A stretch of DNA of 32,000 nt from Planctopirus limnophila DSM 3776. GTDB taxonomy: Bacteria > Planctomycetota > Planctomycetia > Planctomycetales > Planctomycetaceae. The notes under the pieces are model-generated. The model was given only the letters and a program-made list of their open reading frames with translations, was not told the origin of the DNA and made no database searches. Positions 1 to 27,211 of the stretch are shown here, piece after piece (position 1 is the stretch's first letter; each line of letters opens with the position of its first letter). Position numbers and translations under genes: made by a program. The stretch covers positions 30,001-62,000 of the forward strand of contig NC_014148.1 of NCBI RefSeq assembly GCF_000092105.1, read 5' to 3'.

Positions 1-1
1 A

Positions 2-1606: not shown

Positions 1607-1657
1607 CTTGTTGGGCCTGATGTGTTCTCCCACGCGGACGCGGGCATAAGTCTTACT

Positions 1658-1683
1658 CCTTCTCCCGTTCCGACGGGAGAAGG
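1658..1683. terminator. perfect 11-bp stem-loop between convergent ccsA and SUI1 genes (candidate bidirectional terminator)
   Basis: ccttctcccgt (1658-1668) pairs with acgggagaagg (1673-1683) around a 4-nt loop. There is no clear U-tract. Confidence 0.45.
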
Positions 1684-1719
1684 CCGGGATGAGGGGAAGA
1701 AATAACCAGTGCAATCAGA

Positions 1720-2082: not shown

Positions 2083-2094
2083 GGCAGGTCACAC

Positions 2095-3429: not shown

Positions 3430-4075
3430 AAATCCACTTTTCAGGCAGTCAACAGGTTCAAATATTCAAAAATTGCTGTCAGCGACAGGGGGCTGCACAA
3501 AATCTCAGGCAACTTCCCACGGAGGGTTGAGACCTTTGTGAACCGAGTAGAGGCCAAGCCTGAGCACAGGTTCACAACTTTGCCCAATCCGATCTGAGAC
3601 AACAGCAATTCCCGCGAACCGATTGTTATACCAAGCTCGGCAAAGCATGGCATGTCAGTCGCTGTCGAACGCTTTCACTTCAAACTTGCTGACATGTTCG
3701 GGCATGGCAGCCTGTATGGCTGATTTCATCCTTTGGCCGGTGCCTGAGAGAGTCGTTAAGACTCTTTCCTTGGATACAACAGCAAAGCCAGTCAACCGAT
3801 CAGGAGGATGTTCGCGCATCAGGTCATCAAATCGTCACTATGCATTGAAACAGTAGTAGACTTTTGTGCAAACAAAGGCTCGGATTTGTGCAGATATTGA
3901 GACTGCGTTTGAACTCTCAATTCGATGCTATTGAGACGATGTGTCGATTCAATAATTTCAGTGGAGACTCGATTCCCAAGGATTGACGACACCTTTCAGA
4001 ATTGAAAGATAGACGCACGCGCTCGACACCCGATGACTCAGCAATTCTCAAGGCCGGTCGTATTGCGACCTGGCC

Positions 4076-5662: not shown

Positions 5663-5788
5663 GACGCGGCGGTCTCACACGTACTCTCACTCAGAGAACC
5701 TGAGGACTGGATCCTTGGGCTTTCCTATAAATCGTTTCGCGTTCGACTCAATCCTTTTGTCTCGTCATTTTCTTCAGGACTTCAGGCT

Positions 5789-6784
5789 ATGCTCTCTCCA
5801 TTACGCCCTCACGCTGCTCATCGTCATTCTTTGCGATCCGCATTTACGCTGATCGAACTGCTGGTTGTGATCACCATCATTGCGGTTCTGATTGCCTTGT
5901 TGCTCCCCGCAGTCCAACAGGCCAGAGAAGCATCCCGACGCACTCAATGCAAAAACAATCTGCATCAACTGGGTTTAGGTCTGCATAATCATCATTCGGC
6001 TTATGATGCTTTTCCTTCAACGATCAGTGGCACCATCGATGGTGTCAGTGTTTTCCATGGATGGGGTGCACAGATCCTGCCCTATATGGATCAATCGCCA
6101 CTTTCCGGGATCTACGATTTTCGCCAGCGAAATAACAACGCGGTGAATCGCACAGCCGTTGAAACGCCTCTTTCGTTTCATGTTTGTCCAAGTGTTCCCG
6201 GTGATACCCGGCGGAATTTTCGATTTGTCACAGGTGCCGCTGGATGGGGCGCAGCATCCAGCGATTACATGGGTGTTTCTTCGATTTCGACAACTCAGTA
6301 CACCAACGGATTCGTGGCGACACCTCGCCCGACGAATACCGATGGAGTTTTCCTGTTTTCGAGCAGGCCGGGTACGCCAGGTCGTAAAATCAAGGATGTC
6401 ATTGACGGCACATCGAACACCATGATGGTCTGTGAATCGGCCGGTCGTTCTCACATTTACCGCCTCGGAAACATGGTTGGTAACTGCGATCAGTCCATGC
6501 TCACAGCCACAACGACGGTTGGAAACGCCAATTGTGTTACGATTTCCTCCTGGGCTGAAGCCAATCTGGGAGCATTGCGCGGCTCACTGTCGGATGGAAC
6601 AGACACTCGAGGTCCATGCATGGTGAACTGCACCAACAACTTCCAGATCTACAGCTTTCATGAAGGAAGCGCAAACATTCTGATGGTCGATGGATCGGTT
6701 CGTTCTCTCAGTGAGAATGTCAGCAACGATATCGTGGCTGGTTTGATTACCATTGAAGGTTACGAAGTGCTTGGTGAATTCTGA
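5789..6784 (+). CDS. DUF1559 family protein with prepilin-type N-terminal cleavage/methylation domain
   Basis: It has the N-terminal leader [37 protein letters not shown] and the C-terminal H-X9-DG motif [14 protein letters not shown]. Confidence 0.9.
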
Positions 6785-6878
6785 TGCTCGACGCATTCGT
6801 TGCTCGATTCATGTCGAATGGAAAGTCGCATCTGACACCAGAATTTCGCCTGCACAATACTCACGGAAAAATTGCATC

Positions 6879-8324
6879 ATGTCTGTATCTGTCGGTTTTC
6901 TATTCCGCCCTTCCAGGCAGCGTACATTCCCCGGCACCAGAATCTTGAGCCTGCTGTCATTTGTAGCGATGTTGGTGCTCCCCTCGGTTTATGTGTTTGC
7001 CGTTGACAGCCCCTCGTCAACGAACAAACTTGAGGCTGCAGGTAACACGGCATCCATCGCCAACAAGACTTCACGACTGTCAGAGGGTGCAAATCTCCAG
7101 GATCCTTTCCCGGCTCTGACGCATCTGCTTTTCACAGACAAACTCGTTCCTGTCGAAATCGGGACGGTTGTTCCTGCTCCCGCGGGAACCGAGGTGGTGG
7201 TTGATCCGAAGCGACCTTGGTACTTCGGCAAACGTGAAGGGACTTCTGCTGACGAGCGGATCTTTGACGGGGATGTACGAGTCTCGCCACTGCTTAAATG
7301 GAACAATGACAACACTGGAAAACTGCAGCTCCTTGCAACCGAGCTTCGTACGGCACTGGCCAATCCTCAACGTAAGCCCGCACCCCTGATGCAGCTCTCG
7401 TTGCAGTGGGATCTGCTGAGTGTCTGGTGGCGTCTGGAACAAACCGAAGGAACTCCCCCCGAAGTTCTTTTGGAACTGGCCCGCCTCATTACCGATCTTG
7501 CACAACCGGCTCAAACGCTCAACTCCTTACCCGATGGCTACGAACGGGCTAAAGCCCAGTTCGCTGGTTCGAAAATGGTGGGCTATCAGACGCCCTGGTT
7601 CAGTTCTGATGAGATTCTGGCTGAACAGGATGGCTGGCAACAGCTCGCTCGCCGCTCAAGTAAGCTCTTTGTGGCCCCTCACTCGCTGCGTGCTTCGCGA
7701 ATTTATATGAAAGCCCTTGATCCCGCTGGAACCAGTGCTGATACCGAAGCCTTCCTTAAGGCGTGGGCGACTTCGGGAACCACACGTGACTGGCAACCCG
7801 ATCGACAGGTGCAGACGGCGATGATTCTGTCGCTGATCGGCATTACTCCTGATCTGCAGGCCGTTGCGACACCTGTCATTGACGAAATCCGCTTCCGTGT
7901 CGTGCATGCTCCGCAGGATCAGATTGATCCCCTGGAGACCACGTCCCGGGATGGTTCGACCATCTGGCTCTACTACCTATCCCGCTCCGGAACACAACAG
8001 GCTGGTCAACCGACCTATCGGTTTGTCAGTGGTAACGAGCAGGCACTCTTTCCCGAGTACGGCACATCCAAGCACACCACCTTTGCTGCTCAATGCACGC
8101 TCTGTCATCGACTTGAAAACTCAGGGAAGCAGGCACCTGGCGGGATCCGTTCGCTTTCGTCTTATGCTGGGGGAAAAACCACATCCGACCGGCTCCATCG
8201 CTTCCGGCTGGCGGAGACCGAAATGTCTGTGGTGACTGCCCGTCTGAAAGAACGCCTGGCTGTAGGAGCCAAAACTCTCCCACTCGCCGAGTTCGAATAT
8301 AAGAAAACCACCAACGGGCTCTAG
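6879..8324 (+). CDS. hypothetical exported protein with a single C-terminal CxxCH heme-c motif
   Basis: The long ORF is in codon-usage context. I chose the ATG at 6879 because it gives the signal-like N-terminus MSVSVGFLFRPSRQRTFPGTRILSLLSFVAMLVLPSVYVFA. The track start at 6753 would overlap the upstream gene by 32 nt. The only motif I recognise is AAQCTLCHRLE. Confidence 0.7.
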   Translation: MSVSVGFLFRPSRQRTFPGTRILSLLSFVAMLVLPSVYVFAVDSPSSTNKLEAAGNTASIANKTSRLSEGANLQDPFPALTHLLFTDKLVPVEIGTVVPAPAGTEVVVDPKRPWYFGKREGTSADERIFDGDVRVSPLLKWNNDNTGKLQLLATELRTALANPQRKPAPLMQLSLQWDLLSVWWRLEQTEGTPPEVLLELARLITDLAQPAQTLNSLPDGYERAKAQFAGSKMVGYQTPWFSSDEILAEQDGWQQLARRSSKLFVAPHSLRASRIYMKALDPAGTSADTEAFLKAWATSGTTRDWQPDRQVQTAMILSLIGITPDLQAVATPVIDEIRFRVVHAPQDQIDPLETTSRDGSTIWLYYLSRSGTQQAGQPTYRFVSGNEQALFPEYGTSKHTTFAAQCTLCHRLENSGKQAPGGIRSLSSYAGGKTTSDRLHRFRLAETEMSVVTARLKERLAVGAKTLPLAEFEYKKTTNGL

Positions 8325-13602: not shown

Positions 13603-13881
13603 AAGACTCGTGAATTCATGATGAGTTCTCGATTCGTTGCTCTTTAAACTGGTTCGAGAAAGCCTGTTTTCACGCAGATTGATCAGTTACGACCTGTTCA
13701 GGACTGCCTAGTGCAGGAGCAGATTTCGCCCACTGGTTGGGCAGCAAACTTACCTTATGTCCCCGGCAGCTCACGGCTTTGGATTTTTGCAGGAGATTTG
13801 GGTTCGCCTGCGAGTTCTGGTCAGCCGCCCACCTTGTTTTCGTACATCCGTCTTTGCCTCGTCATTAGAGAAAGTCAGAAT

Positions 13882-14853
13882 ATGTTCCCTCGTCGTCGCG
13901 GCTTCACTTTGATTGAGCTGCTTGTGGTGATTGCGATCATTGCCGTATTGATCGCTTTATTGTTGCCAGCAGTCCAGCAGGCACGAGAAGCCGCCCGGAG
14001 GACACAGTGCCGCAGTAATCTCAAGCAAATCGGCCTCGCACTGCACAACTACGAGAGCACTTATGGTTGTTACCCGACTCGCACCACGGGATTAACCGCA
14101 AATCCCGATGCCAAGCGACATGGTATGCCAGTGCGACTGTTGCCGTTCATCGATCAAGCCGCCCTTTTCAACACTTACGACTTCCGTCAGCACTGGTATT
14201 TCCCAGTGAACGAACCCGCGATCCGCACTCCATTAACTATCTTTACTTGTCCCTCCGATCCGACGCCGAATGTGGATACTTCGACCTTTACGGTTGACTC
14301 AGTGACTTACAGTACCTTGCAGCGATCCACGACCGACTATGCCGAGAATGGTGGCGTCAGTACTAACCTGACGCTGGCCAGTGGTCTGGTCGATGCCCAG
14401 ACAGTGAACAATCCTGATGGTCCTTTTGAAGACAATTTCAAGATCTGCCGTATCCGAGACATTATTGATGGACTCTCGAACACAATTTTCGTGGGTGAGC
14501 GTGGAGGGGTACCACTGCGATACAATAGTGGTGTTCCTTCTGGAGCAGTGATTCCCGGAACGGGCATGCTTAATACTTCCGATGGTGGTGGTGGCTGGGC
14601 TGATTATCGTCAGGGTGTCCGCATGGCTGGGTCAACAGCTGGGACTGGAGCCAGGAATATCAGTAGCACAACCAATTTTGGTCGATGCGCGATCAACTGC
14701 ACCAATCATGAAGAATATTACAGCTTCCATACAGGTGGTGCTCACTTCCTGATGGGTGATGGCAGTGTGCGATTCAACTCTGAGAACATTAGCATCACGG
14801 TCATGGCCAGGCTCTTATCTGCTCAGGCTGCTGAGGTCGTGGGAGAGTATTAA
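13882..14853 (+). CDS. DUF1559 family protein with prepilin-type N-terminal cleavage/methylation domain
   Basis: Starting at ATG 13882 gives [43 protein letters not shown]. The C-terminal H-X9-DG motif is [14 protein letters not shown]. The GTG 13711 extension adds 57 aa with no family resemblance. Confidence 0.9.
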   Translation: MFPRRRGFTLIELLVVIAIIAVLIALLLPAVQQAREAARRTQCRSNLKQIGLALHNYESTYGCYPTRTTGLTANPDAKRHGMPVRLLPFIDQAALFNTYDFRQHWYFPVNEPAIRTPLTIFTCPSDPTPNVDTSTFTVDSVTYSTLQRSTTDYAENGGVSTNLTLASGLVDAQTVNNPDGPFEDNFKICRIRDIIDGLSNTIFVGERGGVPLRYNSGVPSGAVIPGTGMLNTSDGGGGWADYRQGVRMAGSTAGTGARNISSTTNFGRCAINCTNHEEYYSFHTGGAHFLMGDGSVRFNSENISITVMARLLSAQAAEVVGEY

Positions 14854-14941
14854 CGCACGATATCGGCCTAATGTTGACCGCACTATTCGTTATACATGTC
14901 TATCTTGCGATCTCAGTTTTTTACAGGAGTGATTGGGCTTT

Positions 14942-15913
14942 ATGAAACGTCGTGGATTTACGCTGATTGAGCTGCTCGTTGTCATCGCCATTATTGCAGT
15001 ACTGATTGCACTCCTGTTGCCCGCAGTTCAACAGGCGCGCGAATCGGCCCGGCGAACGCAATGCCGGAACAATCTCAAGCAAATGGGATTGGCACTGCAT
15101 AACTATCATGACCAGTACCAGTGCTTTCCTGCTGGTTTTTATCGCGGTTGGCCATTTGTGAATACGACCACCACACCAACCTCGGGAAGCCCCGGTTGGG
15201 GTTGGCAGACGATGATTTTACCTCAGATTGACCAGGCCCCGCTCTATAACCTGCTGAATGTCGGTGCGAATCGCTTGAACGGTACTGCGACTGTCACTTT
15301 TCAGGGTGTGGCGGGAACGCCCATCAAGGTTCTGGGCCAGCAACCAATTGCTGCCTATCGCTGCCCGAGTGATGTGGGTGCTCGATTGAATCCGAATCGT
15401 GGAGACTACGCGACATCGAACTACCTGGGTGTTTTTGGCCCCGCCTTCGACAATACCGTCGAAGGTTCCGATGCACTCGTTCGCGGGAGCTGGATTGGTC
15501 GAAATCGTGGTATCTTCGGTGCGAACTCCTCGACACAATTCAAGAATATTACAGATGGCACCACCAATACTGTCATGATTGGTGAAATTGCACTGGGATC
15601 TTTCCGCGTCGACTCCGCCGGATTACCAGTCAATTTTAACGGTGGCACCTGGATGGGCTTGTCGTCAGACAATACCTCGAACGTCAATACAGCACTTTCG
15701 CTCTGTGGCTACTGTATCCCCGCGAACACTGGCGCTGTCAATCGTCGGATTAACTCTCCCAACGGTGGAAACGCTTTCAGCAGTTTCCATACAGGTGGGG
15801 CTCATTTTGCCATGGCCGATGGATCGGTGCGTTTCCTGAGCGAGAATCTTGATCTGGATATTGCCGATCGCATTTCCGGAATGGCAGATGGTCTGACTGT
15901 CAGCCTGGATTGA
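14942..15913 (+). CDS. DUF1559 family protein with prepilin-type N-terminal cleavage/methylation domain
   Basis: Starting at ATG 14942 gives [41 protein letters not shown], with AGGAG 12 nt upstream. The C-terminal H-X9-DG motif is [14 protein letters not shown]. Confidence 0.9.
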
Positions 15914-15960: not shown

Positions 15961-16794
15961 ATGTTGATGAGGTTTTCGAGCTTTTGTCTCTTTGTCGCAT
16001 TCAGTATTGCCGCATCCAGCTTGACGCTCTCGGTGGCTCAGGCTGCTGAGCCGATCCGAGTGTCAATCTATGATCACTCGGATGGATCGGCTAACGGGCC
16101 GAAAAATCTGATGAAGTTTCTGACTGAGGAAAATGGCTTTAAGTGTGTGCGTGTCAGCCCGGAAGAGATCCGCGATACCGATATCCTCACCAAGACAGAT
16201 GTGCTGATCATCCCTGGCGGGAGCGCCAGTGCGCAGTCGAAAAAGCTGGAAGAAGCTGGCTGTGGGAAGATCAAGGAGTTCGTGAAAAATGGGGGTGGCT
16301 ATGTTGGTATCTGCGCTGGTGCTTACCTGGCGACATCCGACTACTCCTGGTCACTCGGCTTAATGAATGCCAAGGTGGTCGACAAGGCCCACTGGGCTCG
16401 CGGCACAGGCCCTGTCGAACTGGAGATGAAAGAAACAGGCAAGACGTTGCTGGGTGAATCCAGCGATCTTGTGGGTGTCTATTATGGCCAGGGTCCGCTG
16501 CTCAGCCCTGGAAGTACCAAAGAACTCCCTCCATATGAACCATTAGCACTCTACGCCACAGAGATCGCGAAAAAGGGTGCTCCCTCCGGTGTCATGGTGG
16601 GTACCAGTGCGATTGCCAAAGTCAATTACGGAAATGGACGGGTCATCTGTTACAGCTGTCATCCCGAAGGTAAGAATGGTCCTCACCATCTCATCAAAGC
16701 CGGTGTGCGCTGGGCAGCAGGGATTGATGAGCTACCGGCTCCTGTCGCCTCTCCACAAAAGTTAAGTGCCGATTCGACAACGAAAGTCGATTAA
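15961..16794 (+). CDS. exported BPL_N / class I glutamine-amidotransferase-like fold protein
   Basis: It has the signal peptide MLMRFSSFCLFVAFSIAASSLTLSVAQA. The motif VLIIPGGSASAQ...FVKNGGGYVGICAGAYLA resembles the biotin-protein-ligase N-terminal / GATase1-like nucleophile elbow. Confidence 0.65.
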   Translation: MLMRFSSFCLFVAFSIAASSLTLSVAQAAEPIRVSIYDHSDGSANGPKNLMKFLTEENGFKCVRVSPEEIRDTDILTKTDVLIIPGGSASAQSKKLEEAGCGKIKEFVKNGGGYVGICAGAYLATSDYSWSLGLMNAKVVDKAHWARGTGPVELEMKETGKTLLGESSDLVGVYYGQGPLLSPGSTKELPPYEPLALYATEIAKKGAPSGVMVGTSAIAKVNYGNGRVICYSCHPEGKNGPHHLIKAGVRWAAGIDELPAPVASPQKLSADSTTKVD

Positions 16795-16865
16795 CTGCGA
16801 TAGCCATGATTTTCGCAACGGATTCGATCCGCTGCTGAATCAGGCTTGATATTGAATAAGTACTT

Positions 16866-16898
16866 GTGAGCCGCTGGTTTCATCAACCAGCGGCTCAC
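16866..16898 (+). terminator. perfect 14-bp stem-loop downstream of 15961-16794
   Basis: gtgagccgctggtt (16866-16879) pairs with aaccagcggctcac (16885-16898) around a 5-nt loop. An A/T-rich stretch, attaataaa, follows. Confidence 0.5.
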
Positions 16899-17050
16899 AT
16901 TAATAAACGTCAGGTCATCGTAACCAGATGATCTCAGGGATTTCACGGAATCATTGTGCTTCATCTGGCTTGTGACTGCATCGAGTTCGCTCTCAATTTT
17001 TCGCGAACGTCTTTCTAGGCCAGCTCATGATCAATCAGGGTCGTTGTTGT

Positions 17051-17953
17051 ATGCTACGTTCATCATTCATGGTTTCGACTCTGTTCGTTTTGGCGATGGG
17101 AGTATTTGTTCCTGCTGCCAGAGCTCAGACGGCATCGAATCAGCCAGCCGTTTCTAAAAAGCCAGCGACGACAAAACCTAAAAAAGTTGAGTTTGTGACG
17201 ATTCAAAAGGGAACATTGCCTGTCATTTTGTCGGCACCGCATGGAGGTGAACTCGATTTACCCGGTTCGTTGCCGCGAGATCGGAAAAGCGGGGGAAGCA
17301 GGTTCCAGACGGTGCGCGATGTCCGTTCCAGTGAATTGGCCGAAGCGATTGCCAATCAATTGGAAGCGGAATTTGGCCAGCGGCCTTATCTGGTGATCCT
17401 GCGAGTCTCACGCAAGTATCTTGATGCCAATCGCGAGGCCGACTACGCCTATGAATCTCCCGAGGCTCAGGTGGTTTACGATGAGTACCATGGTGCGATT
17501 GAGCAATTCAAAAAGTCGATTCTGGAAAAGCACGGCTCAGGGCTTTTGATTGATGTGCATGGTCAGAGCAAGGAGAAGGGAGCCGTCTATCGGGGCACCC
17601 GCAATGGTCTGACAATCAGTGCTTTGAACCGCCGGGTGGGCAAGGATGCCGCTTCGTTGTATTCGAAAGTCATGGAAGACGCAGGATTACGGGTGGTTCC
17701 TCCCTCGACAGCCGCTCCCAATCAGGAAGTCGAGTACAATGGGGGTGAGATTGTTGTGGCGCATGGCAGCCAGAATCCTGGTGGTATCGACTGCATTCAG
17801 ATGGAGTTTGGCGCGGATCTGCGTTCTGTTGCCGCTTTGCCACAGACTGCGAAAGATTTCGTCAAAGGGCTCAGCCCTTTTCTGAAAGAGCACTACGGTG
17901 TCTCTGAGCAGCGTCAGGCGGCTGCGGGGGGAACCTCTCCAGCGGGTCGATAG
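17051..17953 (+). CDS. exported N-formylglutamate amidohydrolase (FGase, PF05013-like) family protein
   Basis: Starting at ATG 17051 gives the signal peptide MLRSSFMVSTLFVLAMGVFVPAARAQ. FGase-like motifs are VILSAPHGG, RVSRKYLDANRE and LLIDVHGQS. Confidence 0.65.
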   Translation: MLRSSFMVSTLFVLAMGVFVPAARAQTASNQPAVSKKPATTKPKKVEFVTIQKGTLPVILSAPHGGELDLPGSLPRDRKSGGSRFQTVRDVRSSELAEAIANQLEAEFGQRPYLVILRVSRKYLDANREADYAYESPEAQVVYDEYHGAIEQFKKSILEKHGSGLLIDVHGQSKEKGAVYRGTRNGLTISALNRRVGKDAASLYSKVMEDAGLRVVPPSTAAPNQEVEYNGGEIVVAHGSQNPGGIDCIQMEFGADLRSVAALPQTAKDFVKGLSPFLKEHYGVSEQRQAAAGGTSPAGR

Positions 17954-18140
17954 CTCGGCACTCGTCGAGCGAATGCCGAATTCGCCTGCGAATCTCACCT
18001 GATGATTTTTTCGCAGGACGACCCGACATTTGACCTGCAGACAAGGTACACTTGCGGAATAGGGCCAATTCTGGCTGTTGTAAGACAGTTTTTGGACTGT
18101 CGATTCAAAAAACATATTCCCAAGTCGAGAGTTAAGTTCA

Positions 18141-19274
18141 ATGCAACTGGTTTGTCCACGTGCTGTGCTGTCTGCAGCGTTCACGGTGGTGGGTGCTGTG
18201 GTTCCTTCCCGGACGCCGCGAGAAATTCTGAAGAACGTCAAGCTGGATGCCGTCGCTTCCGGGCCGGGAGCGACCTCTTCGGCCCAACTGACAGGGACAG
18301 ATGGTGACGGTACGAGTATTCGCTTTGATTTGACAGATGTGGAATGCAAAGTGGGTGGCAGTGCCCTGTTGCCCACACAGCGATTAACGTCGATTTTGCG
18401 GGAACTGACAGACGATACTGTCTCGCTGGAAGTCAATGGCGATGCTGTCTGGCTGCGTTGTGGTGGCAGTGAGTTTCGCCTTTCGGCCGAAGATCCAGCC
18501 GACTTCCCGACAGCACCTGAATTCGTCGAAGAAGATTATTTTGTCGTCCCTGCCGATGTCTTTCGCCGGCTGATCAAGCGAACGCTTTTTGCTACTGATG
18601 CTGAGAGCACGCGGTATGCTTTAGGTGGTGTGCTCGTCGAGATTACTGCGGATCAGGTTCGTATGGCTGCGACAGACAGCCGCCGGTTGGCTGTGGCTGT
18701 CGGGGCATGTTCTGTGGAAGGTCAACCTGTCAGTGGCAGCCAGCAGCCCGTGGTTCCTTCAAAAGCGATGTCACTTATTGAGAAGTCACTGGGTGATGAA
18801 GCGACCAATGTCTGCCTCGCGATTCATACCAATGATATTTCCATTCGGGCTGGTCGTGCATCTATTACCACGCAGCTTGTGCAAGGGCGATTCCCGGATT
18901 ATCGCAAGGTGATCCCCGCCCGCTATGAGGCGGAAATTGACCTGGTCGCATCGACCTTCCTGTCAGCCGTGAGACAGTCACAGGTGGTGACCAACGAAGA
19001 GAGCCGGGGCGTCGACTTTACGTTTGCTGAAGGGACATTGAGACTTGCCAGTAAAGCCGCCGACATTGGACAATCGAAAATCGAATTGCCCATCGGCTAT
19101 CAGGGGAGCGAACTGACGATTCGCTTTGACCCTCGGTTCGTGGGAGATTTCCTGCGTGTGCTGGAGGGTTCGTCCACTGTCCATCTGAAGCTGATCAATG
19201 ATGAAAGCCCTGGCGTGTTCACCACGGATGACGATTACACCTATGTAATCATGCCACTCAGCCGCGACAGTTGA
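18141..19274 (+). CDS. dnaN: DNA polymerase III beta sliding clamp
   Basis: The 377-aa product has a typical DnaN N-terminus (L..A...V...VP.R...PIL.NV.L pattern: AVLSAAFTVVGAVVPSRTPREILKNVKLD) and a three-domain length. It ends in ...YVIMPLSRDS. Confidence 0.95.
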   Translation: MQLVCPRAVLSAAFTVVGAVVPSRTPREILKNVKLDAVASGPGATSSAQLTGTDGDGTSIRFDLTDVECKVGGSALLPTQRLTSILRELTDDTVSLEVNGDAVWLRCGGSEFRLSAEDPADFPTAPEFVEEDYFVVPADVFRRLIKRTLFATDAESTRYALGGVLVEITADQVRMAATDSRRLAVAVGACSVEGQPVSGSQQPVVPSKAMSLIEKSLGDEATNVCLAIHTNDISIRAGRASITTQLVQGRFPDYRKVIPARYEAEIDLVASTFLSAVRQSQVVTNEESRGVDFTFAEGTLRLASKAADIGQSKIELPIGYQGSELTIRFDPRFVGDFLRVLEGSSTVHLKLINDESPGVFTTDDDYTYVIMPLSRDS

Positions 19275-19290
19275 TTGTTCGCGTCTGTTT

Positions 19291-19427
19291 TCATACGGAT
19301 TCCAGTATTCGTCTACGCTCCTTGGTATGGGGTGCGCTGGGCCCAAGCGTCTTCGCGAATCCCCAGATCGTGCCGAAAATCGCTGGGGGTTCGAAGACTC
19401 AACCCCAGCCACCCGCCGCGCATTGTT
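19291..19427 (+). repeat. copy 1 of a ~135-bp extragenic palindrome-containing repeat (left arm degenerate)
   Basis: It aligns colinearly with 26951-27087. The 3' 44 nt (atcgctgggggttcgaagactcaaccccagccacccgccgcgca) match copy 2 except for one extra G in a G-run. It starts 17 nt after the dnaN stop. Confidence 0.75.
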
Positions 19428-19470
19428 TTTTGGACTTGGCTCAGCCCGCAGGATTCATGAGTTCAACAAA

Positions 19471-19519
19471 AAGGTCAGGGGTCATGGAAAGTCTCCATCA
19501 CCCCTGACCTTACATTTTT
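19471..19519. terminator. Rho-independent-type terminator between convergent dnaN and the Gfo/Idh/MocA gene
   Basis: An 18-bp stem with one mismatch pairs aaggtcaggggtcatgga (19471-19488) with tccatcacccctgacctt (19494-19511). It is followed by acattttt and preceded by caaaaa, so it could act in both directions. Confidence 0.7.
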
Positions 19520-19564
19520 CACCCGGCGGAAACTTCACCACCAGGAGGAAATCCGATATCGGAG

Positions 19565-20875
19565 TTAGACCACTTTGGTCACACCTGGCGTGGCAATGGG
19601 ATAATTGCCTTCGCTATCGGGCTTCACAGGCATGTCGGCATCCCAGCTCAGTTCCTTGGGGAAGAGACTGATCTGTGAGTTGAGGGCATCGTTCCACTCA
19701 ATGACTTTCCCTGAGTATGTCGCCATGCGGCCCAGGATCGATGTCATCGTGCTGAAAGCGCCGTTATCGGCTTCGTTGTAGGCAACACCACCCTTAATGG
19801 CCTTGAGCAAGTCGTCGTGCTCGACCACGTAAGGATTGGGGCGCGGCCCGCGATAACGCCAATCGTTCCCGGCGGCTGTAATCGAACCGGAAGGATTTGA
19901 AGTTCCCTTCGAGCCATGCACAAATTCAGAGACCTGATTCCAGGTGTTCGGAATATGGCGGCACTGGGAATAAGTGCGGGAACCATCCTTGTATTCGAAT
20001 TCGACGCAGTGATGGTCGTAGATTTCGCCATATCGCTTATCGACACGAACCTGTCGGCCACCCATCCCATTGGCACGGACTGGGTAATCACCCTTCACCC
20101 AGTTACAGACGTCGAGATTGTGAATGTGCTGCTCGACGATGTGGTCACCGCACAGCCAGTTGTAGTAGTACCAGTTACGCATCTGGTATTCCATTTCGCT
20201 CTTGGCGTTTTCGCGCTTGAGCGGTGGTTCCCACACGCCGGCATTGTTCCAGTAGGCCCGCATGGCAATCACATCGCCAATCTGGCCATCCTTGATGCGG
20301 TTGATGGTTTCGATATAGCCAATGTCATGATGTCTCTGGAGACCACAGCCCACCTTAAGGTTCTTTTCTTTGGCCAGCTTGCTGGCGGCCAGCACCTGAC
20401 GGACGCCGGGAGCGTCGGTCGCGACTGGTTTTTCCATGAAAACATGCTTGCCGGCATTAATGGCGTATTCGAACTGCTGAGGGCGGAAGCCTGGAGGAGT
20501 TGCCAGAATCACGAGATCGACACCGCTATCAATCACTTTCTTGAAGGCATCGAAGCCGAAGAAGACCTTGTCGGGAGCAACATCGACTTTGCTTCCCTTG
20601 TCGCCCAGTCCGCCCTTGATACTTCCCACGGCCCGATTGGCGCGATCTTCGAACACATCGCCCACAGCGACCAGCTTGACGTTGTGATCGGTCGAGAGAG
20701 CATCGCGTGCTGCACCTGTTCCGCGTCCACCAGAGCCCACCAGGCCAATGCGGATCACGTCATCACCTTGAGCATAGGCACTTGTGGCCAAGCCCGCCTG
20801 TGCAGCCAGGGCCGCCCCTGCCACCATACCGGTCGTCGCGAGGAACTCCCGACGTGATCCATTCAATTGATCCAT
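19565..20875 (-). CDS. Gfo/Idh/MocA family oxidoreductase with twin-arginine (Tat) signal
   Basis: Starting at ATG 20875 gives MDQLNGSRREFLATTGMVAGAALAAQAGLATSAYA, with GGAGAG upstream. The Rossmann motif is IRIGLVGSGGRGTGAA. The track extension to 21016 adds 47 aa with no signal logic. Confidence 0.9.
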   Translation of the reverse strand: MDQLNGSRREFLATTGMVAGAALAAQAGLATSAYAQGDDVIRIGLVGSGGRGTGAARDALSTDHNVKLVAVGDVFEDRANRAVGSIKGGLGDKGSKVDVAPDKVFFGFDAFKKVIDSGVDLVILATPPGFRPQQFEYAINAGKHVFMEKPVATDAPGVRQVLAASKLAKEKNLKVGCGLQRHHDIGYIETINRIKDGQIGDVIAMRAYWNNAGVWEPPLKRENAKSEMEYQMRNWYYYNWLCGDHIVEQHIHNLDVCNWVKGDYPVRANGMGGRQVRVDKRYGEIYDHHCVEFEYKDGSRTYSQCRHIPNTWNQVSEFVHGSKGTSNPSGSITAAGNDWRYRGPRPNPYVVEHDDLLKAIKGGVAYNEADNGAFSTMTSILGRMATYSGKVIEWNDALNSQISLFPKELSWDADMPVKPDSEGNYPIATPGVTKVV

Positions 20876-21132
20876 AGTTAACTCTCCGGAGGTCGTTTCG
20901 TGATTCAAAACTTCGCTGTCATGAGTGAGCATGCTCTCAATAGGGGTGCCGACCCGCCATTGATCTTCAGCGATAAAACATATCAATAGTCGATCATGCT
21001 TTGCAGCCGAAGGCAAGCGCCGTCGCGGGAAAACTGAACGCGAAAGCCGAACTCATCCTTCGACCGGTGATCATTCAGACTTCATTACGAACTGATGTCT
21101 GAGAAAATGAAGTCTTTCCATCGATTCTGCGG

Positions 21133-22110
21133 CTATTTCTTGAGAATCCAGATGTTCTGAAAGTGAACTTTATCGCCGTGGTTCTGCAGGAAGATGGCCC
21201 CTGGCTTCTGATCTTTCTGGCCACCGCCGGGTGTGGGCTTGAGTTCGAGGTTTTCGTGTATCACCACTCCGTTATGCCGAACGGTGGTTTTGGCAGGTGA
21301 TTTCACATTGCCTGCTTCGTCGAACTTGGCACAAGTGAAATCGACATCGTAAGTCTGCCAGGAAAGTGGCGGCAGGCACATATTCACTCGGGGTTTTGAG
21401 TTAATGTAGATGCCACCGCATTCGTTATCAGCCCCTTCGAGTCCGAATGAATCGAGGATCTGGGTTTCATACTGATCACCCAGGTAGAGCCCGCTGTTGC
21501 CGCGAGCCTGCCCGCGGGCATAGGGCATGTAAGGGGATCGAAATTCGATATGCAGAGTATAGTCTTCGAACTTTTCCTTGGTGCGAGTCCCCACATTCAG
21601 AAGTTTGTCTTCGGTCATGGAAGCTTTGTCCCATTGATCGACATTTGTGCCATCGAACAGCACGACGGCACCTGCAGGTGGTTTTTGCCCCAGTGTGGGT
21701 GACGTTCTTTGGACTTTGTTGAGCTCGACTGATTTGGCCGAGTGCCTCACAACAGCTTTCGTGCCTTCAATGACCACTTCGTAGTCGCTACCAGCCAGCG
21801 AGGTTTTGCCGTCTTTTGTGGCACCATTCAGCTTGAACTTGTCGGTCTTACCTTCGAAGCCGGCTCCAGGGAGCCCACCCTGGTAGAGGACTCCGCGAAA
21901 CTTGCTATCGCCATCGGCAATCACCTGCAGGCCCCAGCCATCAGCCGCATATTCGCCTTGAATGGCAAAATCCGGCCCTGCTGCAGCCGCATCGAGATAG
22001 GCCGTCTTGGGGCCGTCTGCGGCCATCGCCGTATTGTCAACCAGGAAGCAGGCCCCGGCGGCTAACCCTAACGTGAGAACTGTTCGCCAAGTGAAATTCA
22101 TGTGCCGCAT
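21133..22110 (-). CDS. exported DUF1080 (3-keto-disaccharide hydrolase family, PF06439-like) protein
   Basis: It has the signal peptide MRHMNFTWRTVLTLGLAAGACFLVDNTAMA. DUF1080 hallmarks are VVLFDGTNVDQWDKA, NSGLYL, and IFLQNHGDKVHFQNIWILK at the C-terminus. Confidence 0.85.
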   Translation of the reverse strand: MRHMNFTWRTVLTLGLAAGACFLVDNTAMAADGPKTAYLDAAAAGPDFAIQGEYAADGWGLQVIADGDSKFRGVLYQGGLPGAGFEGKTDKFKLNGATKDGKTSLAGSDYEVVIEGTKAVVRHSAKSVELNKVQRTSPTLGQKPPAGAVVLFDGTNVDQWDKASMTEDKLLNVGTRTKEKFEDYTLHIEFRSPYMPYARGQARGNSGLYLGDQYETQILDSFGLEGADNECGGIYINSKPRVNMCLPPLSWQTYDVDFTCAKFDEAGNVKSPAKTTVRHNGVVIHENLELKPTPGGGQKDQKPGAIFLQNHGDKVHFQNIWILKK

Positions 22111-22267
22111 GAGAAAACTCCCGGAATGGTCGATCAGGTGGTGAGGGCAGAGGTTGTCATCGCTCTGCGCGAATCGCAACAAACTCATCCAGAGCAGCTT
22201 ATCCGTTGGCGGGGTGCAATGTCAGCCACTTGCCAGGAAAACTTAATTGGGGTGTGGCGAAACGAAT

Positions 22268-22759
22268 TCAGTCGAGAAATCGCTCACGCTCTCCGGGTTG
22301 TGGCAGGCGGCAGGCGTCGGCCTGTCCAAACATGCGATATCGGTTGCGGGCGATAGAGCGATATATCAGATCGCGAAGAGGCCGGGGGATGATGCTCCCC
22401 AGATGGCCCAGCACTTTCCAGAAGCCACCTAACTCCTGGGCAATGGCCAAGGCAGCGGTGGAATGGCGAAAGAGTTGGCCGTTTTTGGCAACGACCATCG
22501 AATCGAGTTGCTCGCGATCAGCAGCGGGGAGCATCTCAGCCGCTGTGGTTCCTTGCAGAGGTGCGAAGAGGATTGAACCCTGTGGCTGTCGTTTCAAGAC
22601 AAACTGCACCGACTTCTGACACAGCCCGCACTGACCATCGTAGAACAGAATTACCCGGGATGAGGGCTGCACTTTTTGGCTGGCCACTTCACTCAAGGCA
22701 GGCTGACTGTTAGGCCCGACAGCCTGTGAAGTTGCCACTTCGGTGGGAGAGATCGTCAT
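22268..22759 (-). CDS. thiol-disulfide oxidoreductase DCC family (DUF393)
   Basis: The diagnostic motif is ILFYDGQCGLCQKSVQFV, and the size is ~160 aa. Confidence 0.85.
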   Translation of the reverse strand: MTISPTEVATSQAVGPNSQPALSEVASQKVQPSSRVILFYDGQCGLCQKSVQFVLKRQPQGSILFAPLQGTTAAEMLPAADREQLDSMVVAKNGQLFRHSTAALAIAQELGGFWKVLGHLGSIIPRPLRDLIYRSIARNRYRMFGQADACRLPQPGERERFLD

Positions 22760-23052
22760 GGCCTGGCCCTATCGACTTCATCGCTGATCCTTGTGCCCTG
22801 CATGGGCAACAAGCAAAACAGAATTAGCACATCAGCTCTGACATGAGAACCGCAGCCTGATCACGAAACCAACAGCTACTTCCGAATGCTGGTTCACGGA
22901 CCTCATCACTTCGCACTTCATCATTTAGCAATGGCTGTTTGTGACGATTCAGAGCAGCTTTCTTGAAACTTTTACAGGCAGAAATTGCCGAAAAATAGAA
23001 ATTGTTTCCGAACTGCTCGGAGTGATTGTAACGGTTAACTCCAATGAGAATA

Positions 23053-23068
23053 TCGAGTTATAACTCGA
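23053..23068. promoter_or_regulatory. perfect 16-bp palindrome in a divergent intergenic region (candidate operator)
   Basis: The palindrome is TCGAGTTATAACTCGA. It is followed by two GGCGCATGA direct repeats at 23072-23080 and 23090-23098. Confidence 0.25.
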
Positions 23069-23214
23069 CTAGGCGCATGACGGCAAAGTGGCGCATGATT
23101 CGCTCGTCAGAAGTTTGGCACGCCAGCAGGATGCTCAGTGCCAAATCCGGCTCAAAATCGTCCTGAACCGATTTCCGAGCCTCGGACGAACAACATAGAT
23201 CGGAAAGTTTGCGC

Positions 23215-24561
23215 ATGGATGCGACACGGGCCAGAATCGCTCTATTGGCGATTGCGTTCCTTCACTGTTCATTGCTTTCGCTCACGGCACAAGCGGCCAG
23301 CTACCGCACTCCCAACTTTATTGTCACAGCGCCGACCGATGAATTCGCTCGCGTTGTGGGAGAAGCCGCTGAAGAGTTCCGCCGGGACTTGTGCCTCTCC
23401 TGGACAGGTCGCGAAATGCCCCGCTGGGGAAAGCCTTGCCCAATTTCCTGCAAGGTGGGGAACTACCCCGCAGGTGGTGCCACCACGTTCAATTTTGATC
23501 GTGGCGAAGTCTATGGCTGGAACATGGAAGTTCAGGGGACTCCCGAACGAATCCTGGATTCGGTTCTGCCGCATGAAGTCAATCACACGATTTTCGCCTG
23601 CTACTTTCGCCGACCACTTCCTCGCTGGGCCGATGAAGGCGCCGCTTCACTCATCGAACACGAATCGGAAAGAATGCGGCTGGAAAAACTCGCCATCGAA
23701 GCCACGGGTGGACGTCGCAAAATTCCTCTGAGAACACTTCTGGGGATGAAAAACTATCCGCAGGATCAGCGGCAAGTCCTCACCCTCTATGCACAAGGCT
23801 ATCTGCTGGCGGATTATCTCATTGCCAAATCGAGCAAAGGGGAGTACCTCAAGTTCCTCCAGTCTGCTCATGAACGAGGATGGGATCAGGCACTGCAATC
23901 TCATTATGGCTACAGCAACGTCGAGCAGATTGAACAGGAACACGACCGCTGGGTACTCGCTGGCTGCCCAAGGCAGCCCGCAAGACCTGGTGAAATGCTC
24001 GCTGGCAACAATTCACAGCCTGCATCCGAACTCCAGGCGACCAGAACACAGCCAACTGCACCACTGGCGATGGTCGCTTCCAATTCCCCAGGTACGGCTA
24101 GCGAACCCCGTGGATTTTCACTGACTCGACCTTTCGAGCGTCGATCAGCCACTAATTCGAACGTCGATAACTTGCGGGTACGTGGCCAGAATCCAGAAAC
24201 CAGCCAGGCTGTCGCCATTCTGGATCGTACTGAAACCTCCGATGTTCTTGTCGCAGCGACTGCACCTGGCAATCGCCCCGAAAACAGTCGCATCGTACAA
24301 AACGAGGGTTATATTCCGGCTGACCCAGTGGCCAATCTCCGCACGACTGAGATCGAGGATGTAGCCGCTAATACTCAAAAGATTGACCCGCGACTGGCAG
24401 AAGCCCGTGCGGCACTTGCTGCAGCCACACAGGCCATGCAGTCCGGGCCTGTCGCATCCAGCTCAGCTCCAATTAAAGACCGTGCTCAATTAAGCCAGCC
24501 GCTCTTGCAACAGACAGAAATCCCGCAGTTTGAACCACGAGCCACGGCTCGCGTGGAGTAG
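23215..24561 (+). CDS. exported zinc metallopeptidase-like protein (HExxH, peptidase MA-like) with long low-complexity C-terminal tail
   Basis: It has the signal peptide MDATRARIALLAIAFLHCSLLSLTAQA. The motif VLPHEVNHTIF is followed by RWADEGAASLIEHE, a gluzincin-like third ligand. TTG 23209 is an alternative start. Confidence 0.7.
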   Translation: MDATRARIALLAIAFLHCSLLSLTAQAASYRTPNFIVTAPTDEFARVVGEAAEEFRRDLCLSWTGREMPRWGKPCPISCKVGNYPAGGATTFNFDRGEVYGWNMEVQGTPERILDSVLPHEVNHTIFACYFRRPLPRWADEGAASLIEHESERMRLEKLAIEATGGRRKIPLRTLLGMKNYPQDQRQVLTLYAQGYLLADYLIAKSSKGEYLKFLQSAHERGWDQALQSHYGYSNVEQIEQEHDRWVLAGCPRQPARPGEMLAGNNSQPASELQATRTQPTAPLAMVASNSPGTASEPRGFSLTRPFERRSATNSNVDNLRVRGQNPETSQAVAILDRTETSDVLVAATAPGNRPENSRIVQNEGYIPADPVANLRTTEIEDVAANTQKIDPRLAEARAALAAATQAMQSGPVASSSAPIKDRAQLSQPLLQQTEIPQFEPRATARVE

Positions 24562-24598
24562 CCTTTTCCGGTTGCTCACTTCAGACGGGTGGGTGGCA

Positions 24599-24622
24599 GG
24601 GGCGGATGTCTTCATCCGCCCC
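24599..24622 (+). terminator. perfect 10-bp GC-rich stem-loop after the peptidase-like gene
   Basis: ggggcggatg (24599-24608) pairs with catccgcccc (24613-24622) around the loop tctt. Confidence 0.5.
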
Positions 24623-24715
24623 CTGGTCATTCAAGGTCACCCGCACAAATACATCTGACAACATGCATTCATGACTTTTCACGCTGTTCGTTAAAAACGA
24701 TCCGAGTCCCATGAC

Positions 24716-24745
24716 CTGGGGGCAAACGAGGACGTTTGACCCCAG
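24716..24745 (-). terminator. 13-bp stem-loop (1 mismatch) just 3' of the minus-strand exonuclease gene
   Basis: ctgggggcaaacg (24716-24728) pairs with cgtttgaccccag (24733-24745) around the loop agga. It lies 34 nt beyond the stop at 24779. Confidence 0.4.
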
Positions 24746-24778
24746 CCACCCCGTAGCCTTTTTCAATGCATAAATCTT

Positions 24779-25603
24779 TTAAGCGGGTGGAGGCTGCCAA
24801 TCACCCCAATGCGAGAGATAATGCTGATAGGCCGGTGAATTGTCTGCCTGATTTTCCAGCCATGTTTTCGTTTCACCCACCAGTTGTTGCTCACGCTGAA
24901 GTGTCAACTTGCCCTGCAGAACCTGGCTTCTCAGAAAGACAAAATAGGTATCCAGCACATCACAGCGACAGTAGTCGTTGATTTCTTCGTCGCGTCCTTG
25001 ATGATGAAAATCCTGCACCATCGAACCATCGATGCCACTTTTGCCGGGCTTTCCCAGCACGTTGGCCAGGAGATTCAGCCCGCCCGAAAGTCGTGTGGCA
25101 CCAAAGTTCGAGAAAAAGTCGCACAGGTCGAAGTGAGACGAACTGTTATAGCGATTGCGGGGCTGCTCGAATGATCTCAGTTCTAATGAGAACCATGCGG
25201 GGATCGAGAAACCATAGCGCAGTGCCGCCAGTTCCAGCACAGGCATGTCGTAAGAACGGCCATTAAAGCTGACCAGTGTGGGATAGCCATAATGCTGCCA
25301 ACCCTGCCAGAAGAGCTGAGCAATCCGGTGTGGGCGATACTCCGGTGCATCAAGAACGACCAGATCGAGCAGGCGAAACTCGGGATCGATTTTGGCAATG
25401 GCCACCGAGACAGGAAGCATGTAGGTGACGGGGAGAACATCTTTTCCCGTCGTTTCCATCAACTCGGCGCGGTACTTCGCAATGGCTGCCTCTGCCGAGA
25501 GATTTTCACCGGGAAAGCGGATGCGGGAAACCAGCTCACCATCGGCAATCGCTTCAATATCAAACACGAGATAACTGACGGCCGTTCGTTTTTCATCAGC
25601 CAT
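24779..25603 (-). CDS. stand-alone 3'-5' exonuclease related to the PolB exonuclease domain (PF10108-like, RNase H-like fold)
   Basis: DEDDy-type motifs occur in order: [44 protein letters not shown]. The ATG at 25603 (MADEKR...) is preferred, and the track start 25657 is possible. Confidence 0.8.
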
Positions 25604-25774
25604 GGCGAACTTTCTTTCCCGCAATAAACCACCAGTTCCCATGAACAGCCGGGTCATGGATCGCTTTCACACCTTCAGGATTCTCCCAAAAGAATGTCCC
25701 CTTGGGAATCAAGATCCGGTACAACCTGATGACAACCTGCATCTGGAGACTGATGATTTGAGGAGTGTTGGCTG

Positions 25775-26941
25775 ATGAAGATCTGCGAAGTATCGAGGCA
25801 TTGGGGTTCTCTTCTGGATTGGAAAACCATTGGCTTCTGCCTGTCGGGACTGCTGCTGCTGGGCACACTGGAACCAGCTGCGGCCCAGTCGAAATCTTCC
25901 AGAACCAGTGCTTTACAACCGAATACCACGAAGAGTGCTGCCGTTCGAGTTGCCCCGCCTTACAACGACAAAACACCGAAGCGCTACGACCTCACCGCCC
26001 GGGCGAGTGAGATCGATCCCAGAGCCAAAGAGCATCCTGAGATTGGTTTTGTTTTTAACAAAGACGGCAAGCCGCAGGATGTGCAGCATGCCGTCGTCGA
26101 TACGCGCGTCAAACCGCGAGGCAAGCTAGTGATCTGGCTGATGGGCCACAATCAAGGGCTGTTCGAGCGGATCTCTGGCTATGGAATGCATGGCATTCAG
26201 GTGCATTATGCGAATGGCTGGTTTGGCAAGCTCAACAAAGAACCACCACCCGATGAACTCTACCTGGGGCGAATTCGCCTTGAAGCAGCGACGGGCGAAG
26301 ACTTCAGTCCCGACATTGAGATCCCGCTTCCGGACGGCATGGCCGAACGTTCGCGTCAGTTTGTGAAGTGGCTGGCCAAAGAAAATCCTCAGGGGAAATG
26401 GGAGCAATTCCTGACCGAAGAGGGTGATCTCCGCTGGGAAGATGTCATCATGAGTGGGATTTCGCACGGTTCGACGACAGCCGCCCGGTTTGCTGTCCAT
26501 CAGAAGGTGGATCGCGTGGTGATGTTTTCCGGGCCGCGCGATCAATTGGAAGGTTGGTACAAGCTTCCTTCAGCCACGCCGCATGAGCGGTTTTTTGGCT
26601 TTACGCATGTGCTGGATGGTGGCTGGACTGCAGACCATTACTGCCGGTCATGGCTGTTACTGGGGCTCAATGACTTTGGCCCGACTGTGAATGTGGATGA
26701 CGCCAAACCCCCATTCAGCAATACCCGTCGTCTGGTCACGAATGCCAATGTGGGGAACGATGCCAACAATGCTCACGGTGCTTCGGTTCCGGGCGGGCCG
26801 TCTCCCAAAAATTCGAAGGGTGTCTACCTTTATGAGGATGTCTGGAAATACCTGTTCACGCATCCGGTCGATCGGAAGGGCCCGGCAGTCCCTGCAGAAG
26901 CCGATTGCACACTCGAACATAAAGTCAAAGGGAAGAAGTAA
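25775..26941 (+). CDS. exported hypothetical protein, probable alpha/beta-hydrolase fold
   Basis: A signal-like TM segment (IGFCLSGLLLLGTLEPAAAQ) is present, and the RBS GAGGAG lies upstream. There is a nucleophile elbow GISHG in VIMSGISHGSTTAA, with later FSGPRD and NNAHGAS in Ser-Asp-His order. Confidence 0.65.
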   Translation: MKICEVSRHWGSLLDWKTIGFCLSGLLLLGTLEPAAAQSKSSRTSALQPNTTKSAAVRVAPPYNDKTPKRYDLTARASEIDPRAKEHPEIGFVFNKDGKPQDVQHAVVDTRVKPRGKLVIWLMGHNQGLFERISGYGMHGIQVHYANGWFGKLNKEPPPDELYLGRIRLEAATGEDFSPDIEIPLPDGMAERSRQFVKWLAKENPQGKWEQFLTEEGDLRWEDVIMSGISHGSTTAARFAVHQKVDRVVMFSGPRDQLEGWYKLPSATPHERFFGFTHVLDGGWTADHYCRSWLLLGLNDFGPTVNVDDAKPPFSNTRRLVTNANVGNDANNAHGASVPGGPSPKNSKGVYLYEDVWKYLFTHPVDRKGPAVPAEADCTLEHKVKGKK

Positions 26942-26950
26942 AGACGGGAA

Positions 26951-27087
26951 TGATATGGATTCCAATAATCAATTGGGCTCCCTAGTATGGGGTGGCTGGG
27001 GTTGAGCGTCTTCGCGAACCCCCAGCTAGTACCCAAGATCGCTGGGGTTCGAAGACTCAACCCCAGCCACCCGCCGCGCAGTTGTTC
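26951..27087 (+). repeat. copy 2 of the ~135-bp extragenic repeat; contains an 83-nt imperfect palindrome
   Basis: The left arm gggtggctggggttgag (26990-27006) pairs perfectly with ctcaaccccagccaccc (27056-27072). Inner segments tcttcg/cgaaga and aaccccc-agc/gct-ggggtt also pair, and the loop is ~14 nt. The element starts 10 nt after the stop of 25775-26941. Confidence 0.75.
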
Positions 27088-27211
27088 ATTTGGCTCTGAT
27101 CATGTAAGGCAAACATGTACGCAAGTCATGACTGCAGAAGAGTCTGCTCTATGACGATCGGGCCCACGACAGCAGGTTCAGTCTCAAGACGATCATTGAC
27201 CGCAACAGCGG

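Follow-up and report, generated by a model that had tools for sequence, protein, structure and literature searches.

Genomic context and features of the locus

The stretch of Planctopirus limnophila DNA that was analysed (the window, 32 kb long, with a G+C content of about 0.54) contains six copies of a short repeat unit, all intergenic, which are arranged in three inverted pairs designated A, C and B in the order of their positions. Pair A lies in the spacer between dnaN and a gene for a GFO/IDH/MocA oxidoreductase, pair C in the spacer between the ORF 23209-24561 and a PolB-like exonuclease gene (24779-25657), and pair B in the spacer between the ORF 25775-26941 and a DUF3419 gene. All three spacers are convergent (3'-3'), and each pair is located 12-30 nt past a stop codon. 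According to the ORF list, three of the four convergent junctions of the window hold a pair, while pairs are found at none of its tandem and divergent junctions. The original prediction, which described two copies of a repeat, had its intervals begin 10 and 17 nt past stop codons, and these stops were located at 26939-26941 and 19272-19274. The features of the three pairs are as follows.

26954-27101, no strand assigned: composite read as REPIN B, with left outer arm, REP unit, spacer, inverted REP unit and part-decayed right outer arm (alignment with ten related copies)
26990-27025, plus strand: REP unit B1, long form, foot GGGTGG and hairpin CTGGGGTTGAGCG-TCTT-CGCGAACCCCCAG (exact pattern match)
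27026-27041, no strand assigned: spacer of pair B, 16 nt, forming the loop of the long hairpin (fold)
27042-27072, minus strand: REP unit B2, short form, GGGTGGCTGGGGTTGAGTCTTCGAACCCCAG (exact pattern match)
19294-19441, no strand assigned: composite read as REPIN A, built like B but decayed (alignment; weak fold)
19330-19366, plus strand: REP unit A1, degenerate, GGGTGCGCTGGGCCCAAGCG-TCTT-CGCGAATCCCCAG (fuzzy search only; fold z = -0.35)
19383-19414, minus strand: REP unit A2, GGGTGGCTGGGGTTGAGTCTTCGAACCCCCAG (exact pattern match)
24591-24625, plus strand: REP unit C1, A:T lower-stem variant, GGGTGGCAGGGGCGGATG-TCTT-CATCCGCCCCCTG (exact pattern match; fold z = -4.9)
24716-24751, minus strand: REP unit C2, GGGTGGCTGGGGTCAAACG-TCCT-CGTTTGCCCCCAG (exact pattern match and fold)

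A separate long hairpin (AGGTCAGGGGTCATGGA / TCCATCACCCCTGACCT, window 19465-19519), which has one C.C mismatch, an A-run upstream and TACATTTTT downstream, lies with REPIN A on one side and the stop codon of the minus-strand GFO/IDH/MocA gene on the other. This hairpin resembles an ordinary intrinsic terminator that works in both directions, although the terminator consensus scan did not list it.

Anatomy of the REP unit

The REP unit is 31-37 nt long and can be written as GGGTGG-C(T/A)GGGG-(variable)-TC(T/C)T-(variable)-CCCC(A/T)G, in which an unpaired 5' foot, GGGTGG, is followed by a bulged hairpin whose upper stem varies and whose loop is TCTT or TCCT. The exact unit pattern has five matches in the window and none in 100 shuffles of it, and A1 surfaces only by fuzzy search. 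In addition, the 12-mer CCCCAGCCACCC, allowing up to one mismatch, occurs five times in the window against 0.2 occurrences expected. Within each pair the GGGTGG ends point outward, and the units of pairs A, C and B are separated by spacers of 16, 90 and 16 nt, respectively, 16 nt being the commonest gap in the A/B subfamily. When B1 is folded alone, its foot stays unpaired, and the minimum-free-energy structure leaves CT and the terminal CAG unpaired as well.

Pair C (24591-24751), which was absent from the original prediction, is a more diverged third REP doublet. Its unit C2 was first seen in an inverted-repeat search, in which the left arm of B matched 24716-24755 on the opposite strand. 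C1 and C2 each fold into a hairpin of their own, and their two feet can pair with each other. Pair C is a REPIN of a sister subfamily with a conserved spacer of about 90 nt, of which nine more pairs, with gaps of 79-90 nt, are found in relatives.

The foot is GGGTGG, which contains GTGG, rather than the canonical GT[AG]G, and this places it outside the GTAG superfamily sensu stricto and does not exclude the REP class as such. Two other resemblances of the unit were set aside, namely a tRNA-like reading of GGTTCGAA, which is specific to one stem variant, and the similarity of GGTGGCTGG to E. coli Chi, which was judged a coincidence.

Extent and decay of copies A and B

The interval 26951-27087 had been described as colinear with 19291-19427 in the same orientation, and the two copies indeed align with 86% mean column identity over 179 columns, 20-nt flanks included. 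The repeat search found 37 nt to be identical between the copies (19386-19422 and 27044-27080) and a further 53 nt to match at 81%. In order to define the boundaries of the element, A and B were aligned with ten related copies from one close relative. Homology among the aligned copies opens at TA(C/T)GGATTCCA, and the well-kept copies close at TGGAATCCGTA, while the sequences beyond the TACGG...CCGTA ends are unrelated to one another. The outer arms are inverted repeats of each other, with the layout ...CAACTGCGC[+TCCTTGGTAT]-REP ... REP'-GCC-GCGCAGTTG..., and the right outer arms are decayed in both window copies, so that the elements span about 19294-19441 and 26954-27101. The repeat as originally delimited was retained, with its start moved to TA(C/T)GGATTCC (19294 in A and 26954 in B) and its 3' end to about 19441 and about 27101. 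Element B is an imperfect palindrome about 148 nt long.

Folding of copy B reproduces both the 17-bp perfect outer stem (26990-27006 with 27056-27072) and the roughly 32 paired positions that had been read from the letters of the sequence. The palindromic character of the 83-nt segment was likewise upheld, and the view of it as a single structure was amended, since the units fold singly as a foot plus a hairpin and the segment thus consists of two inverted REP units facing each other, each with its own hairpin.

A contig from the MAG 'Planctomyces sp.' D1_MAG_00040 (L041, positions 1-8000) is 95.3% identical to window 16088-24088, the dnaN region. REPIN A is present at the same site in this ortholog, the one orthologous region compared, where the already damaged left unit bears extra substitutions. 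The retention of the copy at the same site, together with these added substitutions, indicates that the insertion of REPIN A is old and that the copy is decaying in place. Taken with the G+C content and the three DUF1559 paralogs of the window, the L041 match points to a Planctopirus genome.

In two other related copies (L042 176-330 and L045 151-297) the central REP doublet, with its long and its short unit, is flipped relative to the differing outer arms when compared with A and B of the window, and this suggests inversion or recombination inside the palindrome.

Folding and covariation

As RNA, copy B folds at -71.2 kcal/mol (z = -5.8), and none of 200 shuffled sequences folds as well; as DNA, the interval 26954-27101 folds at -38.6 kcal/mol (z = -7.1). 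Copy A, the left arm of which is damaged, folds much worse (z = -2.1 as RNA and -0.8 as DNA). Altogether, 52 distinct units were found, and most of the 46 that were folded give the 6-nt unpaired foot GGGTGG followed by a hairpin, in which a single T.C mismatch often separates the constant lower stem from the variable upper stem.

The variable pair of the lower stem is T:A in 41 of the 52 distinct units, A:T in 6 and mismatched in 5, and three of these five are matches from outside Planctomycetota. The upper stem occurs in at least seven complementary versions (CGGCG/CGCCG, CGGATG/CATCCG, CAAACG/CGTTTG, CGAACCG/CGGTTCG, CGAATG/CATTCG, CGGGCG/CGCCCG and TCTCG/CGAGA). Covariation was tested by shuffling partners among units, because the alignment made with MAFFT was not structure-aware and put length differences of the 3' halves at the end rather than symmetrically. 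Contiguous pairing outward from the loop has a mean of 2.54, compared with 1.47 +/- 0.10 when the 3' halves are shuffled among units, and the maximum in 1000 shuffles is 1.88. Pairing above that of every partner shuffle indicates that the hairpin is selected, while the foot, the lower stem and the loop are conserved in sequence. The original prediction had proposed a check for structural covariation, and it is present in both the lower and the upper stem across the 52 distinct units.

Distribution in other genomes

The unit pattern was scanned over 185,579 species genomes and occurs at at least 120 loci, and the figures given here for relatives rest on the loci listed. Among the titled matches listed, nearly all belong to Planctomycetota, including Planctopirus hydrillae and MAGs of Schlesneria, Planctomycetaceae, Pirellulales/Pirellulaceae, Isosphaeraceae and Phycisphaeraceae, and several of these genomes were matched on many contigs. 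The foot and lower stem, GGGTGGCTGGGG...CCCCAG, are almost unchanged across Planctomycetaceae, Pirellulales, Isosphaeraceae and Phycisphaeraceae, that is, across families and even classes. The original prediction had named one outcome that would point away from a dispersed element, namely just two copies genome-wide with no covariation; on the contrary, the unit is present at at least 120 loci and its hairpin covaries. Three matches outside Planctomycetota, in Thermaerobacter, Clostridia and Streptomyces records (L031, L039 and L060), show a mismatch in the lower-stem pair or an unusual loop, and they appear to be fortuitous, arising in DNA rich in G+C.

A fuzzy search of the loci listed (at least 120) plus the window yielded 215 units, compared with 9 in shuffled sequence. 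Among the matches listed, 72 neighbour pairs are no more than 200 nt apart, and 64 of them are in the +/- arrangement with the feet outward, whereas 4 are -/+ and 4 are tandem. Likewise among the matches listed, feet-outward pairs account for 128 of the 215 units and 77 units (about 36%) are single, and the gaps within pairs cluster at 9-27, about 45 and 79-90 nt.

The placement of REP clusters in relatives was assessed with a rough greedy gene call and is to be read as a trend only: 44% of the clusters (63/143) fall inside ORFs, compared with 87% coding sequence overall. Clusters are thus under-represented in ORFs. By the same rough call, they are over-represented at convergent junctions (23 of 58 against 128 of 628) and under-represented at divergent ones (7 of 58 against 124 of 628). 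The clusters located inside called ORFs are tentatively attributed to over-calling of ORFs in G+C-rich DNA.

In the viral collection the pattern was matched once in 2.9 million contigs, which indicates that the element is not phage-borne. In addition, a Logan contig (L001, SRR017854_138) that matches window 24725-27012 and carries the gene 25775-26941 ends inside REP units on both sides, as expected for multi-copy repeats.

Linkage to RAYT genes

Quentin et al. (2018, BMC Genomics 19:475, PMC6006769) listed in Table S1 two REPs, GGGTGGCTGGGGTTGAGTCTTCGAACCCCCAGC and GGGTCGCTGGGGTTGAGCGTCCTCGCGAACCCCC, for the RAYT of PlimA01 (ADG68431.1, subclass 2.2). The first of these, a 33-nt P. limnophilus REP, is identical to window 19382-19414 on the minus strand, that is, to A2 plus base 19382, and B2 is one C shorter than it. 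B1 and A1, the long-form units, are the counterparts of the second published variant. Bulged hairpins were reported to be typical of subclass 2.2 REPs, and GTGG-type feet to occur in marginal members of that subclass (PMC6006769). The class 3 TnpA of Planctomycetes, which goes with a CnGA foot, was considered as a partner and rejected, since it is a subclass 2.2 RAYT with which this unit has been linked in the literature (PMC6006769).

A tblastn search of the 32-kb window found no RAYT gene (best E = 0.66). In a relative (L011), the product of one ORF contains HVH and YVHQNP motifs; against NCBIfam NF047646 'REP-associated tyrosine transposase' it reaches 87.1 bits, the cut-off being 80, and its match to Pfam Y1_Tnp is weak. 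Two units precede this RAYT gene on the coding strand and a single inverted one follows it, and two more RAYT-adjacent units were found in L009 and L029. Moreover, 80 metagenome loci encoding relatives of the L011 RAYT were retrieved with that protein, and 16 of them have units within 400 nt of the RAYT gene. In those 16 loci, with the strand of the gene taken as plus, the upstream units are on the plus strand in 10 cases and on the minus strand in 5, while the downstream units are on the minus strand in 13 cases and on the plus strand in 3; the full frame, with upstream plus and downstream minus units around the RAYT gene, is present in 8 metagenome loci. The RAYT linkage of the source genome itself would accordingly be that given by the published Table S1 and by these relatives.

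Eleven further RAYT loci lack the TCYTC loop, and on inspection all eleven are flanked by related foot-plus-hairpin repeats. About eight of them keep the GGGTG[GC]C foot and the CTGGGG lower stem with differing loops and upper stems, and in the three remotest (45-55% identity) a related foot sits on different stems. The differing loops and stems of these eleven loci indicate that the repeat changes with the RAYT, and it appears to co-diverge with its transposase.

The flanks of eight RAYT homologs (L125, L132, L137, L141, L148, L164, L181 and L193) carry the GGGTG[GC]C foot, often together with the CTGGGG lower stem. Loops around more distant RAYT relatives include, for example, GCGCAGC, GCGAAGC and CCGACAGG, and GGGTGCCACTGGCGG repeats occur there in tandem.

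Identity of the element and alternative explanations

With high confidence, B can be identified as a REPIN, an inverted REP doublet, of a RAYT-associated REP family, with A as a second, decaying copy and C as a pair of a sister subfamily. This identification draws on the identity with a published REP, on how the units are built and oriented, on their covariation, on their spread in many copies and their extragenic placement, on the contig breaks inside units, and on their linkage to RAYT genes in relatives. Each unit consists of a foot and a hairpin, as expected of a REP; the units form inverted pairs, which make up one long hairpin and have a dominant orientation, as expected of a REPIN; and units frame the RAYT gene in relatives (L011, the metagenome loci, L009 and L029). 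Counting against it are the lack of a RAYT gene in the window, the non-canonical foot, the proportion of singlets (about 36%), the decayed state of copy A and the 63 of 143 clusters that lie in called ORFs. A REP/MITE-like dispersed element was one of the options of the original prediction; it was the correct one, and the published unit, the spread and the RAYT linkage now allow it to be named as a RAYT-associated REPIN.

The repeats might instead be primarily host-selected RNA structures, that is, bidirectional terminators or 3'-end stabilisers after stop codons, the repetition of which would reflect function rather than mobility. Such a role is consistent with the presence of all three window pairs in convergent 3'-3' spacers, at three of the four convergent junctions, with the great stability of copy B as RNA and with the T-rich runs beyond the right arm, TTGTTTTTT in A and TTGTTCATTT in B. 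Furthermore, REPs of E. coli protect upstream mRNA. However, the T-rich runs begin at least 8 nt past the stem, and the intrinsic terminator consensus scan found no site at A, B or C. The spacer of A has, apart from the repeat, a further hairpin of ordinary appearance with runs of A and T (about 19465-19519). Copy A has moreover been retained in the ortholog L041 despite having lost most of its pairing. RAYT genes are framed by the same units, which occur on either strand and also as singlets, and a conserved foot and lower stem with co-variation of the rest are typical of a DNA substrate recognised by a protein. In the whole window, Rfam gave no matches at the gathering threshold, and an E-value search of 26900-27150 returned only sub-threshold eukaryotic miRNA hairpins, with at most 28 bits against thresholds of 74-100; these miRNA-precursor matches were discarded as the generic noise of long hairpins. 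With units on both strands, symmetric pairs, no Rfam match and no match in the terminator scan, a dedicated 3'-UTR stabiliser or terminator family and a 3'-UTR-derived sRNA, both raised originally, gained no positive support, and we regard a primarily host-selected structure as improbable.

It is still more improbable that a DDE transposase of the IS630/Tc1 kind, with TA target duplication, moves the composite of about 148 nt as a conventional MITE that happens to hold a REP doublet. The well-kept copies do have terminal inverted repeats (TACGGATTCCAATA...TATTGGAATCCGTA), and a target duplication might explain the TA found at each end, but this TA is also simply part of the palindrome and indistinguishable from it. 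In about 1.1 Mb of related DNA the 14-mer terminus occurs only at about 15-25 nt from a REP foot, never alone or beside a transposase. No DDE transposase was found in the window, and no IS with matching termini was seen in the same 1.1 Mb or so. Doublets of other lineages (L030, L057 and L078) share the core and differ in the outer arms, and it is the core that frames RAYT genes. As for a local segmental duplication or chance similarity, the window does hold only two full-length copies of the A/B subfamily, 7.6 kb apart in the same orientation; yet their flanks are unrelated, the unit pattern is absent from shuffles, and it is found at at least 120 loci in many genomes, and we give this explanation no weight. 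Integron attC sites and CRISPR were also rejected, as housekeeping genes occupy the 7.6 kb that separates the copies, and no integrase, cas gene, R'/R'' cores or array is present.

Proposed mechanism

For a RAYT-associated REPIN, the course of events can be proposed by analogy with the family, from which the chemistry of cleavage and transposition as well as any effect on RNA would be carried over. As a class, REPs are the DNA substrates of RAYT, a domesticated transposase of the HUH/Y1 kind related to the TnpA of IS200/IS605; genomes have one or a few RAYT genes, framed by the REPs on which the enzyme acts. On single-stranded DNA, RAYT might bind the hairpin, read the foot, and cut and rejoin next to the foot, and the doublet would thereby be excised or copied and then inserted elsewhere. 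Copies would persist where they are least harmful, which would be the 3'-3' spacers of convergent genes, and singlets as well as copy A may represent decay products. Where the long hairpin is transcribed, it may stabilise or end the upstream mRNA, an effect that would be secondary and would not account for the existence of the family. For E. coli TnpA_REP, REP-specific nuclease activity has been reported, and a co-crystal structure shows recognition of the hairpin and of GTAG (PMC6006769).

The near-invariant foot and lower stem, the upper stem and loop that track the RAYT, and the placement at convergent gene ends raise the possibility of an ancient, vertically inherited REPIN-RAYT partnership that has been co-opted by the host and is not a mere passenger, although we consider this rather unlikely. 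Possible roles under such co-option include those of a terminator or insulator working in both directions and of a binding site for a conserved protein of the nucleoid or of DNA topology. To our knowledge, transposition of a REPIN has not been directly observed in any organism.

Relation to known systems

The REPIN concept has been described for Pseudomonas fluorescens SBW25 (Bertels and Rainey 2011, PMC3116915; PMC3337134). Like the REPINs of SBW25, the elements described here consist of inverted REPs with a short spacer that form one long imperfect hairpin of about 100-150 nt; they are extragenic, have a preferred relative orientation, and their cognate RAYT is framed by the same REPs. They differ in the phylum of the host, in the foot (GGGTGG here and GTAG in SBW25) and in that two spacer classes, of about 10-27 nt and about 80-90 nt, coexist here. 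The REP/BIME elements of E. coli with TnpA_REP are comparable in that a foot plus hairpin is read on single-stranded DNA by an HUH/Y1 enzyme, in their inverted pairs and in their location 3' of genes, whereas their sequence is unrelated and their foot is GTAG. BIMEs of E. coli are also bound by IHF, gyrase and Pol I.

The subterminal hairpins of IS200/IS605 share the protein superfamily and the combination of a hairpin with a short guide or foot on single-stranded DNA; they bound an element that carries its own transposase, whereas the repeats here are non-autonomous and dispersed, with the transposase gene elsewhere. Intrinsic (Rho-independent) terminators resemble the element in having a G+C-rich hairpin just past a stop codon, with some T-rich sequence after the right arm. 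By contrast, the stem is far longer here (about 32 bp), no adjacent U-tract is recognised by the rules of the scan, and the element is conserved across genomes and linked to RAYT.

The element class is well described, and the core unit has already been tabulated for P. limnophilus. REPs have been mentioned in Planctomycetes by Di Nocera et al. (2013; PMC3733652), the main text of which gives neither species nor sequence, while the P. limnophilus REP in Table S1 of Quentin et al. covers only RAYT-adjacent units, and the dispersed doublets, the outer arms and the convergent placement are not described there (PMC6006769). The new details are modest, and they comprise the doublet with its outer arms, the two spacer classes, the third locus, the concentration at convergent junctions and a foot and lower stem that are conserved throughout the phylum. 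Annotation can make use of the pattern GGGTGGC[AT]GGGG-N4-9-TCYTC-N2-8-CCCC[AT]G, which identifies REP units throughout Planctomycetota, accounts for breaks in assemblies, and cautions against calling such hairpins sRNAs, terminators or miRNA-like hairpins. The comparative value, which is also modest, lies in a non-proteobacterial REPIN-RAYT system with a non-GTAG foot and a core conserved phylum-wide, and this core fits the published view of REPIN-RAYT systems as long-lived and vertically inherited.

Other repeats in the window

Three DUF1559 (SBP_bac_10) paralogs that carry N-terminal methylation motifs, a hallmark of planctomycetes, are also encoded in the window (5789-6784, 13711-14853 and 14933-15913), and they account for the direct-repeat families D1, D2 and D6 of the window.
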